A DNA stretch of 64,000 nt from Puniceicoccales bacterium (GCA_031275345.1 JAISOW010000002.1:128517-192516); one strand, 5' to 3'; positions 1-15,000 are shown, numbered from the stretch's first letter. Program-made: the numbers.

Positions 1-3000
1 CGGCCCTCATCCGCCAGGTGGTGCAACTTTTTGGATCGGAAACCTCCCTGCGCAACACCCTGGCGGCCCATTCCAATGAACAGGCAGCGCACTTCGACGC
101 TGCCATATACCACAAAAGGTTGATGCCGATGCTGGCCGACCTCATTTACACATTGGCATGGGGCAAGAAACCTTGTTTTTCAAAACAAAGTTTCTTGGAC
201 TTTGTCACGGGTAATACGCATACAATCCCTATGAGATTTGATCACGATGCCCCGGCGGCCGCCCTGCACAAATTGCATCTTTTCCGCATCCTACTGGTCC
301 ACTACCTGCCGGCTGCGCTGTGCCGCAAGGCATTGGTGGACTATAACTGGGACGCGGACGGGCTGCGCTGCATCCCATGCCACCTATCCATCCCATCCCA
401 GGCTAACTACCGCGATCCCACCATGGAAATTGTTCAGGAAACCATGCTGGCGATGCAAACGCCTTTAACCGAACGGCATATCCTGGGCTATGCCGCCCTA
501 ATGGTCGGGCTGGCAGAACAGGAAATGATCAAGCGGGTCATCATTCCATTCGACGAAACGGAGCCGGCCCAGCAATTTTTTGCCCTATTTTCCTTGCCGC
601 TCTCTTCGGTTGTTCAGAACAACATGGTCCGAAAAAAGATTCATACAACGGAGGCGCGTGAACTGCTAAAAAATTTATTGCTGGCCGTCAACGGCACCGC
701 TGACACGTTCACCGCAGCACTTTTGATAGATAAACGGATTAAAATTATCCAGGCCATTTCCAACTGTCCGATCGCCCAGCGGTTCATTGATGTGAACAAA
801 ATGGAGCTGGTCAACCTTGGCAACGGCGCCATTGCCCTGTCCGGCACGGTGGAAAATTTGGCGGTCTTGCCCCAGGCAATGGGGCAAAACACACTCTTTG
901 ACCCGGGGACGGTGGGAACATTGCTGCTGAATATTTTTTCCGAAACCGAAAAGGGGCAGGCCATTTGCAGCGTCATTCCTTCGATGCAAAACCTAGCCAA
1001 GACAATGACCAACTACCTTACCACCCTTGCGAAAAAAAACCTTACTCCTGCCAATGTTCGTGCCCTGCTGGACATGGGAGCACTGCTGTCGCCGGCCATG
1101 GAAGCCAATGCCCGCGCAATTTCCACCGCCTTTTCTTCCCTGGAAAATGGCAGCAAAATAATCGATGGTATCCTTTTCGCTGGCAACCATGGCTTTGCCA
1201 TCCTGGACAGGCGTGCAGTGGACGAAAAGATCATTCCCGTCACCGACCTGGACGACGATGCACTGTCTCTCATCGAATTTTCCGATCGGACTCGCCTATT
1301 TCTCCTCCTCGACCAGGCCCATTGCACCGGTACAAATTTTCCAGGACTGCACCCAATGGCCCGTGGAGTCATTCTTGTGGATCCCAATTCACTGCGTTCC
1401 AGTCTATTCGTGCAAACCGTGATGCGCCTACGCCAATTTGGCCAGGGTCAGCACATTGATCTGCTGGTGGATCAAACCGCACTGCAAACTGCCCGGCAAA
1501 GACTGGTGACCAATGATTCGATTCCATCGTCGTCCATCGGCACAACGCCGCCACCGTCAAGTGTCGCAGAATGGATTGCCATGATGGCAGATGGGGACGC
1601 CAAAGCAGCGGTGCAAATTGCAACGCCAGGTCTGATGGCGCACATTACCTCCGCCTTCCGCAGAATCGTTGATAAGTCATCGCATCTCTCTGAGGGCAAT
1701 TCATTTGCCTCCCAAGAAAATTTTACCATTGAAGCGCTGCTGCAACAGGCCAGTGGAACGGCGCTGGAGCAGCTGGTGGCCGCCAGGGATGAGTACGCGG
1801 AACGCCTGGAGCACATAGATGACAAAGGTGTGGAGATTTTTCAGTATGAAACACAGCAAATAATTGACCTGGGCAACCGACTTATGCTGGGGACGGCGCA
1901 GGCGGACTCTGGACCGGGTAGGACGGTGCAGCACCAACGGATCGAAGTGGCTGACCAACAACAGGATCAACAACGAGATCGCTCATCTCAAGTCGAGCGG
2001 GAAAAGCTGCAGCTGCGCATGCGGGAACTGGAACGGGAGCGGTTCAGCCATGTGGCCAACGACATGCTGCATGAAAAAAAAGAAAGTTTGGCAATCATTT
2101 CCCAAAAAGAATCCATCATTTCCTATGCCGCGCGCCTGTTGCCAAAAAAAATTTCGGAAACGGGCCTATTTCCGACCGACAAGGCAATGCATGCCTACGC
2201 CACACTGTTTCCAGACAATTTTTTCATTTCCAGCAATGCGCTCAGCCCGGCAACCGTTCCCATCACATTTTTTAATCCAGCCATGCGCCGCTGCCCCTAC
2301 TTTTTAATTTACTATGCAAAGCCTGCCTATATCAAATGCATGCTCATTACCCAGAATGAAGCGGACAGTGTTTGCCATGCACTGGCCAACCAGCTTCTGT
2401 TCGACCCCTGCGCCCTGTATGCCGCAGATGGGGTATTTCCGCTGGCAAAAACTTCCGCATATTCGCAAAATTCGGTGCCCAACGACCTACTCCTGTCCGT
2501 TGCCATTTTCAATGGAGACTTTCGGACGGCCATTGCTCTTTTGGCCAACAACGAACTATTGCGGAAAAGTTTTAGCCTCCAGCAGCTGCAGGCCATGGCC
2601 CATCTATTTGAACTGCGGTCTGGAGTGCCGTTGGATGTGGACCTGTTCACCGGAAATCGGCAAATGGGTACGACCTGAATCGGTCAACGATGTGGGCAAC
2701 GGCAAACTTGGAAGCGGAGACGGGGACAGGGCCCGGAGGAAAATCCCGTGGCCGGAATCGGATGATGTCCCCTCCATTTTCGTTTTCAACGTCTTTTACG
2801 GGAAAGCTTTATCCGCTGGCTTTTGCGATTCACATTTCCACTTGACTCGGCAAAAAAATAATTGATTATAAAATTGTGTCTTGCAATCTTTCGAAATCGG
2901 CCTTCAATGATACAGTTCAATCGCAGATGGTTCAAAAGGCGCAGCAGCAGCTGCTGCTAGTGAGTGGATCGCAGATACAAACAAAAATCTACGACACAAT

Positions 3001-12000: not shown

Positions 12001-15000
12001 CGACTCTTCACAAAATCAACTAGACGAACTGACTCAACAATGTTTAAACCTGCGCCGCCAGGCCATATATTCTCGATACACGGATGCCAAAATTTAGGAC
12101 CAATGCATGGAACGCAATGCAGCCGACTGAGTCTCTCTCCAGGCTTGATGGCGCGCGGAAGAGACCAGTAGTCGATCCCTCCCCGCCACATGGCCTCCTC
12201 GGAGCAACCTTCTCGATCTCTTTTACGCCCCCAAAAAAAACTCTTAAGTTTTATTTTTTTTGCTGTTGTAGGTCAACTGCAGCACCTGGACATTGCTTTC
12301 AAGAAAACAAAAAGCTCCCTTACTTGGGGAAGAAGAGTTCGAGCTGGCTCTTAAATGAGCTAGCATCTTCGCCCCGTGATGAAGAATAATTGTCGCCAGT
12401 TGCAACGCCACGTCAGTTGTTGCAGGATGCTTATTTATGCACCCTAATAAGGCTTCTACCGCGGTAATACAATTTTGTATCGCGTTTCTTCCCTCGCCCT
12501 TAAAAATTGCATCCTTGACGCACTCTATGATGTAGCCCGTTGCAACAAGATCTCGCAGCTTCGATGAATCTGTAACAGGTACACTGTACGAATAGTCCAG
12601 TTCTTCCAAGGAGGATTCGTCGGGCAATTCATCATCATCATCTCCACTACTATAAAACTTTTGAGCATCACTTCTAAATGCTTCAAAGAAAGTTTTTAAT
12701 TCATTAACATCATTTGATTCAATCGAAGAACTGCTGCTGCCCACTTCTTTTACTAATGCTTCCCACTCATTTTTTTTAGACAAGGGTTGTGTCATGTCAC
12801 CGGCAGAAGTTCCTATGGGTTGCTTTTGCGCCAACCATGTAAAAATACCAAACATTTCTCCCAATGGCCAGCCAACCAAGTTTGCAGCTGATAGTTTTCT
12901 TTTATTTTTTGTTAGAAAATCAAGACAGTTAAAACCCCTCTTAAGGGAGTCGCAAGATACTCCAAGTACTGCGGTATCCGAAGAACCATCTTTTTTATAA
13001 ATTTCCTTTGTAAGAAAAGAAAGGGCAGCATCCTGATCCCTTAGACGACCCACTGTTCTCGTACTCATATCTCCTCCGTATTATCAAGCACAAAAAGGTC
13101 GCTTATTTCAATTGGTTCTTCAAAAAGGTCGCTTATTTCAATTGGTTCTTCAGTTACTACAAAGGGTACAAAATCCTTGCCATCACCCAAGAGTTGGAGA
13201 TAAGTTTCGCCTTCTTTTTTTACAATCCTTGATTCTATATTGTCATTCATCTTTTCGGACGACAGTTTAGAGCTGGAATTGACGATCTCTTCATTTCCGT
13301 TGATACTCTTCCTACTGAAATTGAGCGACCTTTCGTCTGTTCCACTCTTCTCATTAGACTGCGGTTTAAGGTTGGAGTCGAAGACCTCTTTATTGGCATC
13401 TTCTTTGACACTTATCACACTGGGAGAGACGCTGGACTTTTCCATTTCTATTGTGTTCGTCCTGTCGGACAAGGTTTGTGAGCCGGATTCGCTGATCTCT
13501 TTATTTTCGTTGATACTCTCCGTACTGAAATTGAGCGACCTTTTGTTTGTTTCACTCTCCTCATTATCTTCGACGACATTTTTATTACTGGAAGAGATGT
13601 TGAATGTTGTCATTTCTATTGTGTTCGTCCTGTCGGAGAAGGTTTTTGAGCTGAATTCTTCATCCTTTTTATCTTTGACGACATCTTCATTGCTGGAATA
13701 GGAATTGGACGACATTATTTCTAGGTTTTTGCTCTCATTGGTCTTCTCGTCTCCGCGAAACCAGCGCTTGGCTAAACCGAGCGTAAACAAACAGCAAAGC
13801 CAAAATACTGCACTGCCAAGGTAGTGCGCCATCCGGGCAAGTGGACCGCAATCCTTAATTGGTTTAGTTCCCACTGACGACACTAGATTAGTAGTGGATG
13901 GGGCGCTTCCTTTCGCCCTCGTGATCTCCTCACCAGGAAAAATATCGACACCACGAAAGCCAGCGGCGATGGCGGCAGTAAACGAAACCATAACTCCTCT
14001 TAAATAGGTAACCTGCCATAAAAGGCAAACTTTTTCAAAAAAAAGCAAGTTTTCCTATTCGATGCTGCAGCCCAACGGTATAAACGTGGGGGCCACTTTC
14101 ACCAATTCGGTCAACCGCGCGCCGCCCTATCAGTGCCAGGCCTCCCCGCATGCTCCCCTTACTCGTTGCTGGAGGATGGACGTTTCGATAAACCCCTACC
14201 CTTGCCGCGTTTTCCTGGTAGTGCGGTGGCCGCCCGCTCCTGGACCTGAACCGCCGAAAAACGCACCAAACATTTTCCCGTTTGCACAGAAAAATCTCCT
14301 TGAGGGCTCACCGTAAACTGAACTTCTGCCCAATAAAACAGCGATTCTTTGTCTACTTTGAAATCTTTGCTAACCTCAGATTTAGCATCCTTTATCCTCT
14401 GATCCAAACCTTCGAATGAATCATTCTCCTGATCAAAATCAGAAAAAGCTTTAGAATAAAAGATAATAGAGCCATCCCTTGAAAGGGTCATTTTGACAAC
14501 AAACTTACAGTTACAAATACACGAAAAAAAGAGATCCCAAAGTTCTTGCCCATCTTCTCCACAAGCATTCCACTGTTGTACTAATTGATTCTTACATGCA
14601 AGTAACATGGCCATGGCTCCTCCCTGGATGTGGCCAAAGCTGCATAAAATCCTCATCGCACCGCATAAAGCTTTGGCACCACCCTTTCTCCATGCCGCCC
14701 GCCCAAAGGCATTCACCCAATTCGCCGTCGAATGATCATTTTCTAGGGAAGCCTTCGACTCTCCCTCAACTTCAAACAGTCCACGCGTCACATCTCTCAA
14801 AATTACTGACCCATTGCACACAGACTCGGGTTTAAAACCTTCCCTAGCATAAACACATTTTTCCAAAACTTGGTGAAAATCAAAGCTTTCAAAGTTTTTA
14901 CTGGTCACGCCATTAAAAAGCGTGTCGGATATTGCATTGCAAACCGCCTTGTTCCAGTAGGAGCTACTCACGTAATAGTCATGCAGCAAACACGCCCCCT

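Follow-up and report, generated by a model that had tools for sequence, protein, structure and literature searches.

What do the two giant genes at the beginning of this piece of bacterial DNA encode, and what could such proteins do for their bearer? The DNA is a stretch of 64,000 nucleotides (nt) from a Puniceicoccales bacterium (GCA_031275345.1, JAISOW010000002.1:128517-192516), hereafter the window, and it opens with two adjacent open reading frames (ORFs) on the same strand, here named copy 1 and copy 2. A preliminary description, made from the sequence alone, had taken them for tandem giant paralogs and had suggested a family of host-directed effectors. We found that both genes are a bacterial branch of the DUF3638 lineage, with a C-terminal ATPase core of the superfamily 2 (SF2) type and, far upstream of it, a conserved domain marked by one invariant His and one invariant Cys. 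Our favoured explanation, to which we give a probability of roughly 45%, is that they are self-contained giant multidomain enzymes, combining a thiol-type N-terminal domain with an SF2 motor, which are probably host-directed and belong to protist-associated bacteria. The coordinates of all features are collected in Table 1.

Two giant paralogs lie in tandem

Copy 1 is cut by the window edge. Its visible part is an exact substring (residues 2210-3100) of P0003, a JGI gene call of 3100 amino acids (aa), which is 3013 aa long in the NCBI call; the full-length protein was obtained through an exhaustive phmmer search of 1.84 billion representative proteins at E ≤ 1e-3. The whole gene also lies at 2111-11554 of L049, a Logan assembly of run SRR14710916, and the upstream extension that had been proposed for the recovery of copy 1 was thereby achieved. 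Copy 2 has the 3073 aa ascribed to it when read from its GTG codon. The NCBI start is the ATG at 2927, 17 codons downstream, which gives 3056 aa, and the protein is identical to LBP65_01555, encoded on a contig of 218,902 bp in a 'Puniceicoccales bacterium' metagenome-assembled genome (MAG). L049 matches window positions 1-12678 with 100% identity, in the order copy 1, a 197-nt gap and copy 2, and this identical order in an independent assembly supports the tandem arrangement.

Compared by BLASTP, the translations from the window aligned over 857 aa at 25% identity (E 1e-44), which confirmed that the two genes are paralogs. The likeness had been placed in the last ~900-1000 aa. It is indeed present there, but that range is not its limit: once the full copy 1 was used, aa 149-1572 aligned at 23% identity (E 1e-51), aa 1877-2745 at 27% identity (E 6e-69), and aa 2941-3035 aligned as well, and the paralogy spans almost the whole length at 23-27% identity. 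The motifs listed earlier (GMGKS, DEVH, the CIP block, DQAHCTGT, Q-x3-R-x-R, FFxxAMRxC and AIFNG) were all found where they had been placed. Q-x3-R-x-R, FFxxAMRxC and AIFNG are present in both copies, as is the CIP...[FY]RxP block, for which copy 1 has a spacing of 10 and copy 2 one of 11. The P-loop and DEVH box had been thought out of view in the truncated copy 1, and its own GLGKS and DEAH do lie just upstream of the window edge.

The 20-nt string GACCAGGCCCATTGCACCGG, previously noted as identical between the copies, occurs exactly twice (1311-1330 and 10811-10830), with 0 occurrences expected in shuffles. At the DNA level the copies resemble each other over no more than 52 nt, at 79% identity, around the motif shared by both. 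At identical residues, 80 of 197 codons are identical against 72.8 expected, and the six identical codons within the DQAHCTGT motif have P ~0.007. We considered recent gene conversion as the source of the 20-nt identity and rejected it because shared codons are not in excess. Judged from these comparisons, the 20-nt identity is a local coincidence inside a conserved motif, and the copies are an old tandem duplication with saturated synonymous sites. A second near-identical stretch (2499-2515 and 11963-11979, 16/17 nt) encodes the V-A-I-F-N-G end motif.

Could the pair instead be an assembly artefact, or two decaying pseudogenes? The source is metagenome-assembled and the 20-nt string is the same in both copies, as an artefact might leave it. 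Against this stand the protein identity of only 25-27% and the shortness of the shared DNA, reading frames that run uninterrupted over 9.2-9.4 kb in both copies, catalytic motifs that are intact in both, and the identical arrangement in SRR14710916. This explanation is effectively refuted.

The C-terminal core is an SF2-type motor of the DUF3638 lineage

The motif order had been likened to the DUF3638/DUF3645 module. In copy 2, PF12340 (DUF3638) is the sole significant Pfam match, with 32.3 bits at aa 2033-2114 when the entire protein is searched and 34.8 bits when the module is taken alone, above its gathering score of 31 bits. Copy 1 reached only 14.5 bits, though it is paralogous to copy 2 over its full length. 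All 11 members of the family alignment (11/11) match DUF3638, with a best E of 8e-48, and the relatives score 76-163 bits, one of them matching DUF3645 as well. The relative P0052, which phmmer reaches from copy 2 at E 6.8e-4, has 162.6 bits for DUF3638 and 41.8 bits for DUF3645 (PF12359). Its PF12359 match (aa 876-902) falls on aa 2333-2358 of copy 2, that is, on the CIP block. The nearest relatives of P0052 are gene fragments on contigs of 0.45-0.85 Mb and one EukProt entry, and they are thus eukaryote-like. The earlier likeness therefore held for DUF3638 and, by alignment, for the CIP block, but not for direct Pfam detection of DUF3645.

Columns invariant across the family are Q2044 and Q2067, which precede the Walker A motif of copy 2, M-G-x-G-K (2070-2074), D2198-E2199, G2489-T2490, D2569, F2642, D2646, G2652 and Q2680-x3-R2684-x-R2686-x2-Q2689. 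They correspond to the Q motif and to motifs I, II, III, V and VI in SF2 ATPases.

We modeled aa 2020-2720 with AlphaFold2 (AF2) on 11 family sequences (pLDDT 81.7, pTM 0.73). Foldseek against the PDB gave 27 matches at E ≤ 1e-3, all of them SF2 or SecA-type two-RecA motors, over an E range of 2e-7 to 1e-3 for SecA and SF2 helicases together. SecA came first (E 2e-7 to 1e-4, TM 0.34-0.40), followed by MDA5, DinG, UvrB, Dicer helicase, INO80/SRCAP, XPD, RIG-I and ALC1. The structure prediction and Foldseek comparison suggested earlier thus returned a two-RecA fold of the SF2/SecA type. According to DSSP, the RecA1 strands of the model lead to the DEVH strand (model residues 175-179), which is followed by a helical region of ~250 residues (~200-450), a strand into the 'LTGT' motif III (465-471) and then RecA2. 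The DUF3645 block forms a beta-hairpin (strands 307-309 and 316-319) inside the helical insert. In the model, a mostly helical domain of ~250 aa, carrying the DUF3645 hairpin, is predicted to interrupt RecA1 between motifs II and III.

In SecA, too, motifs II and III are separated by an inserted domain, motif III reads 'MTGT' and motif V 'GTDI', and the substrate-binding domain sits at that insertion place. The core shares with SecA the two RecA domains and the large domain inserted in RecA1 at this point, and the top rank of SecA is probably explained by the II/III insert together with the 'MTGT'-like motif III and the 'GTDI'-like motif V. There are differences as well. The insert is helical and not a PPXD, no HSD/HWD or SecY-binding elements were identified, the motor lies within a protein of 3000 aa, and a PDB profile search of the core gave no SecA sequence match at E ≤ 10. 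We class the core as an SF2-type motor with SecA-like topology, outside the SecA family.

Other motor families were compared in the same way. The top match of the PDB sequence-profile search was the bacterial 'DEAD/DEAH box helicase' 8qy7, followed by the Snf2-type CHD1L. The likeness to these Snf2-type enzymes (CHD1L/ALC1, 8qy7) runs from L-x-G-x-I-R-L-R-x-x-Q to M-G-x-G-K-T up to motif I and returns in motifs V/VI. With E values of 0.013-0.02, alignment confined to motif I and motifs V/VI, and no SNF2 match in Pfam, membership of the Snf2 family is not supported for the core; the Snf2-specific helical protrusions were not identified in it, and the spacing of motif VI differs by one residue from the Snf2 consensus. 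Like XPD and DinG (Foldseek E ~1e-4), the core has accessory domains inserted into the first RecA domain, but it lacks the Fe-S cluster cysteines, has no sequence similarity to them and carries another insert. ResIII matched only weakly (E 1e-4 to 2e-3, under its cut-off). A routine bacterial helicase family had been named as the finding that would overturn the DUF3638 assignment, and none fits better.

The eukaryotic DUF3638/DUF3645 proteins of fungi, protists and microsporidia have in common with the present pair the P-loop/DExH RecA1 domain and a DUF3645 motif that is conserved in position. Giant size and lineage-specific expansions are further points of likeness (PMC5423893). The present proteins differ in being bacterial and forming a very divergent branch, and in the N-terminal His/Cys domain that they carry. 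In the full-text literature searched under the Pfam/InterPro names, no functional or mechanistic study of DUF3638/DUF3645 was found, only incidental mentions. The bacterial branch, its N-terminal domain and the structural reading of DUF3645 are undescribed in the DUF3638/DUF3645 literature, Pfam and PDB entries searched. The idea that giant DUF3638 proteins contain a VTD deubiquitinase domain proved wrong, as the VTD paper puts those domains in Helitrons/Helentrons.

A conserved His/Cys domain lies far upstream of the motor

The first ~2000 aa had been described as carrying nothing assignable. This did not hold. An alignment of the closest relatives first revealed a conserved block at aa ~170-600, and a profile of this block detected the domain in many more distant family members. 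The N-terminal domain, ~1400-1500 further residues and then the ATPase form a nearly constant layout in ~23 of the 53 family representatives found by phmmer.

In an alignment of 15 sequences (13-25% identity to copy 2), His319 and Cys447 are the sole invariant columns, and the near-invariant ones are Gly309, Gln442 and the Asn of an 'E-I-N' motif. Around the Cys, the consensus reads F-x-x-x-Q-R-S-G-N-C-x-x-K-S. His and Cys are both kept in 19 of the 21 representatives that bear the domain, 18 of which also keep the Gln. The other two have lost both together (N/S in P0011, Y/S in P0012), as would be expected if the pair were catalytic. Sequence conservation thus supplies a nucleophile-type Cys, a base-type His and an oxyanion-type Gln.

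In the AF2 model of this domain (pLDDT 77.2, pTM 0.79), the His stands directly before a beta-strand and the Cys opens a helix, an arrangement that, as modeled, would be the classic papain-like one. The order His...(Glu/Asn)...Gln-x4-Cys is that of the 'His-first' thiol enzymes, namely clan CE (Ulp1/adenain/YopJ) and the permuted NlpC/P60 group (LRAT/PLAAT, PPPDE/DeSI), and the 'N-C' dipeptide at the nucleophile is a further point of likeness. Unlike these enzymes, the domain has a longer His-Cys spacing (128 aa) and large helical decorations. We infer that it is a papain-like 'His-first' thiol enzyme, be it a protease, an isopeptidase or an acyl-transferase.

The domain is new, as no match to a described family is found in Pfam and the PDB. 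It differs from the described cysteine protease and deubiquitinase families in having no Pfam, PDB-sequence, Foldseek-PDB or hhalign match: its profile found nothing in the PDB sequences, and hhalign against adenain and PLAAT3, a weak test, gave a probability of <1%. The weak Foldseek matches in the PDB (the UBC domain of BIRC6, UBE2Z, RavZ and p300) permit no interpretation. Significant fold matches were confined to the uncharacterised Hyperionvirus proteins A0A3G5ABW2 (E 2.9e-6, TMq 0.53, 397 columns) and A0A3G5AAS1 (E 7e-4, BFVD), which are alike in fold with a sequence identity of only 12-13%. These modeled folds suggest that the domain may also be present in giant viruses of protists.

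Between and beyond the two domains, conservation falls off. Residues ~600-1570 are conserved only in the closest relatives, and residues ~1600-1850 show no conservation. The C-terminal ~350 aa, consisting of a coiled coil and the FFxxAMRxC...AIFNG domain, are common to a handful of relatives. Neither residues ~600-1850 nor the C-terminal ~350 aa received an assignment from Pfam or a PDB sequence search.

With motor and N-terminal domain in view, a plainer explanation can be weighed, namely a nucleic-acid helicase or translocase serving housekeeping or genome maintenance, whose N-terminal His/Cys residues are structural, for example metal-binding. The fold matches to the DinG, UvrB, XPD, RIG-I/MDA5 and Dicer helicases agree with it, and all ATPase motifs are intact. 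However, one invariant His and one invariant Cys are too few for a metal site, and the best fold match, SecA, is a protein translocase. The narrow taxonomic range, the 25% identity of the paralogs and the multi-copy state are atypical of such a gene, and the low G+C of the island that holds the pair also speaks against it. We consider this explanation quite unlikely.

The named bacterial members come from lineages probably associated with protists

The phmmer search returned only 53 representatives, nearly all of 2000-5200 aa, some of them already auto-annotated as 'DUF3638 domain-containing protein'. Taxon names were given for 18 of the 30 representatives looked up, 17 of them from Puniceicoccales MAGs and the remaining one from a marine single-cell genome, Chlamydiales bacterium SCGC AG-110-P3. 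Accession numbers suggest that some MAGs hold several family copies. A word-indexed protein search returned only copy 2 itself when queried with all 3073 aa, and no protein for the module alignment, whose members the database contains. Such a search misses relatives of 25-30% identity for long queries, and its negatives are not proof of absence.

The DNA pattern for DQ[AS]HCTGT[DN] was found in three Puniceicoccales MAG contigs, from isolates Roe453_bin18, Cc175_bin8 and Ct408_bin89. A fourth match (L003, Oxalobacteraceae MAG JAKFFO010000112.1, 3341-3367) was discarded as chance, as no ORF there fits the hidden Markov models (HMMs) of the family. The motif-bearing MAGs have accessions within the range JAIRJQ-JAITXW deposited by Mies et al. 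2024 (PMC11257099), and their sample codes stand for the hindguts of three lower termites, Roisinitermes ebogoensis, Cryptotermes cavifrons and Calcaritermes temnocephalus. In the same study, Opitutales with small genomes (families LL51 and UBA9783) make up a large clade that occurs in lower termites only, and its members are regarded as putative endosymbionts of flagellates and as kin of the intranuclear Ca. Nucleococcus (PMC11257099). The bacterial branch is thus distributed over termite-gut Puniceicoccales/Opitutales and marine Chlamydiales. We infer that the family consists of fast-evolving, multi-copy, eukaryote-type proteins in bacteria living with or inside protists.

A search of IMG/VR for giant-virus homologs with a Walker A...DEVH DNA pattern returned 43 loci, 0 of which fit the family HMMs. 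Nine members of ~2080 aa (P0048, P0064-P0070), from ENA metagenome contigs of 6.5-12.8 kb, carry the ATPase at aa ~1000-1700. No N-terminal domain was detectable in this cluster, which could represent a sub-architecture of its own.

The pair sits in a low-GC island bounded by tRNA genes

The lower G+C noted earlier for the region was borne out. G+C is 0.43-0.53 over positions 1-16000, 0.50-0.60 over most of the remainder and 0.58-0.60 in the adjacent core, and it jumps from ~0.46 to ~0.60 exactly at the tRNA-Glu and tRNA-Arg genes. This jump indicates that the giants and the orphan ORFs next to them make up an island of distinct composition, with tRNAs at its boundary.

Orphans flank the giant pair on both sides. 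None of the three downstream matches Pfam, NCBIfam or PADLOC. The second of them (327 aa) is rich in Ser, Asn and Glu and has internal repeats, among them a perfect 30-nt tandem repeat at 13091-13152, with EEPIEISDLF encoded twice. The 458-aa orphan appears to have hydrophobic segments, which possibly span a membrane. Upstream of copy 1 lies an orphan of 563 aa (285-1976 of L049, + strand) with a G+C of 0.48, which extends the island. It has no Pfam or PDB match, and its 'GDVGCCFATAP' followed by 'GLGHAY' calls to mind a Cys/His enzyme.

Elsewhere the window is ordinary chromosome, with TatD, an ABC transporter, YchF, a secretin, LptF/G, gyrA/gyrB, topA, DinB and others. Positions 16000-40000 had no match in a plasmid collection, in keeping with a chromosomal context. 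The type I-E CRISPR-Cas genes have been retained, which suggests that the bacterium is exposed, now or recently, to phages. At the locus of the relative P0002 (L005), the neighbours are different and there is no tandem copy. The neighbours thus differ between the two loci examined (window/L049 and L005), and no conserved partner genes were seen. The G+C of the P0002 genome (0.44-0.49) is similar to that of the island, which is at most compatible with transfer among co-resident symbionts.

Table 1. Positions of the giant genes, their domains and motifs, and other features in the window
Feature	Position	Strand	Remarks
Giant paralog copy 1, 3' end (NCBI LBP65_01550)	3..2678	+	Last 891 residues; open to the window edge
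Motif V of copy 1, DQAHCTGTN	1311..1337	+	
Giant paralog copy 2 (NCBI LBP65_01555)	2876..12097	+	3073 aa from the GTG at 2876
Conserved N-terminal His/Cys domain	3383..4675	+	aa ~170-600; from alignments and AF2 model; putative thiol enzyme
Invariant His319	3830-3832	+	
Invariant Cys447	4214-4216	+	Copy 2 motif Q-R-A-G-N-C-S-V-K-S, with Gln442
SF2-type two-RecA ATPase module, DUF3638/DUF3645 core	8933..11035	+	aa 2020-2720; Pfam, AF2 model, Foldseek
Walker A / motif I, GMGKS	9086..9100	+	aa 2071-2075; family pattern M-G-x-G-K-[ST]
Walker B / motif II, DEVH	9467..9478	+	aa 2198-2201; D and E invariant
DUF3645-equivalent block TCIPFNRSMASSDTFFRNPVEECV	9872..9949	+	aa 2333-2358; aligned to where P0052 matches PF12359
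Motif III, ALTGTA, invariant G-T	10340..10345	+	G2489-T2490
Motif V, DQAHCTGTD	10811..10837	+	aa 2646-2654; aligns with Snf2 motif V of CHD1L
Motif VI, Q2680-x3-R2684-x-R2686-x2-Q2689	10913..10942	+	Invariant across the family
C-terminal conserved domain, FFxxAMRxC ... AIFNG	11696..11980	+	aa 2941-3035; closest relatives only
Three low-GC orphan ORFs (274, 327 and 458 aa)	12244..15535	-	
tRNA-Glu(CTC)	15601-15675	-	
tRNA-Arg(CCT)	16065-16139	+	
Lone secretin with STN domain	19905-21911	-	Adjoins a lipid A acyltransferase gene
Short array-like repeat	53237-53388		Period 61, 2.5 copies
Type I-E CRISPR-Cas (Cse1, Cas7/CT1975, Cas5, Cas6e-type, Cas1)	54348-59943	-	

Defence within the bacterium or action on a host

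The neighbourhood bears on the main rival explanation, that of an intrabacterial conflict or defence protein. Here the giant ATPase and its protease or effector domain would act against phage or plasmid nucleic acid and would not be secreted, by analogy with other large SF2/Snf2-containing defence proteins. The motor is of the SF2 type, its top PDB profile matches are the bacterial helicase 8qy7 and then CHD1L, and it has a weak ResIII-like similarity. Defence islands also sit in low-GC regions next to tRNAs, defence would suit a fast-evolving, multi-copy family without a recognisable secretion signal, and the retained CRISPR-Cas shows that phage pressure exists. However, no PADLOC defence model matched either giant or the three neighbouring ORFs at E ≤ 0.1, NCBIfam likewise gave no match, and conserved partner genes are lacking, with different neighbours at the two loci. 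Moreover, the family is essentially limited to protist-associated lineages, whereas defence systems usually spread across bacteria, and its wider relatives are eukaryotic. We regard a defence role as possible, though on the unlikely side.

We favour the explanation that both genes code for giant, self-contained enzymes of several domains, and that the two copies go back to a tandem duplication that took place long ago within the low-GC island beside the tRNA genes. With the energy of ATP, the C-terminal SF2-type motor would engage a macromolecular substrate or remodel it, and the thiol domain or the scaffold would act on the substrate engaged by the motor. Judging from the distribution, the proteins would most likely be delivered to, or act on, a eukaryotic host. 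This host-directed reading is drawn because the family seems essentially limited to bacteria living with or inside protists. Taken together with the low-GC island by the tRNAs and the thiol-enzyme-like N-terminal domain, it makes the giant effector proposed in the preliminary description plausible. The microsporidia offer a precedent, if a modest one, for such a role where host and guest meet.

Several results weigh against this explanation. Regarding delivery, no signal peptide is visible at the N-terminus of copy 2 as read from its translation, and no genes for a type III, type IV or type VI secretion system lie within the window, where the lone secretin is the only secretion-related gene. 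Regarding lifestyle, the MAG combines a high core G+C with a type I-E CRISPR-Cas system, which calls for caution over endosymbiont status. Regarding the thiol enzyme, the N-terminal domain has no Pfam family at E ≤ 1, its best Foldseek match in the PDB has E 0.06, so that no solved cysteine protease fold is significant, and the near-invariant Asn of the 'E-I-N' motif is replaced by Trp in copy 2, though kept in copy 1. Regarding the module, neither copy has a Pfam match to DUF3645 at E ≤ 1.

We can also imagine, as a long shot, that the whole architecture of ~3000 aa is an unrecognised ATP-driven protein-processing machine of eukaryotes, giant viruses and protist-associated bacteria. It would consist of the His/Cys thiol domain, a long helical scaffold and a motor of SecA-like topology with a substrate-binding insert. 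A polypeptide, such as a ubiquitin-like conjugate, would be threaded or remodelled by the motor and cleaved or transferred by the thiol domain. Endosymbionts of termite flagellates would have gained it horizontally, amplified it and used the proteins as effectors against the host cell or nucleus.

Significance

DUF3638/DUF3645 proteins are widespread giants of fungi and protists for which we found no published function or mechanism. The present analysis gives the family a structural identity, that of an SF2 motor with an insert between motifs II and III, in which DUF3645 is predicted to be a hairpin. The candidate catalytic domain far upstream of the motor offers a concrete and cheaply testable entry into this orphan family.

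The bacterial branch occurs almost solely in MAGs from lower-termite guts and in one marine chlamydial genome, and several copies of 9-15 kb are apparently kept per genome. Should these genomes prove as small as those of the putative endosymbionts, the retention of such genes would point to strong selection, and a role at the host interface would be probable. The locus also hints that genes have passed among eukaryotes, giant viruses and endosymbionts. If the host-directed reading is true, these proteins would be a new class of effectors for a poorly understood symbiosis.

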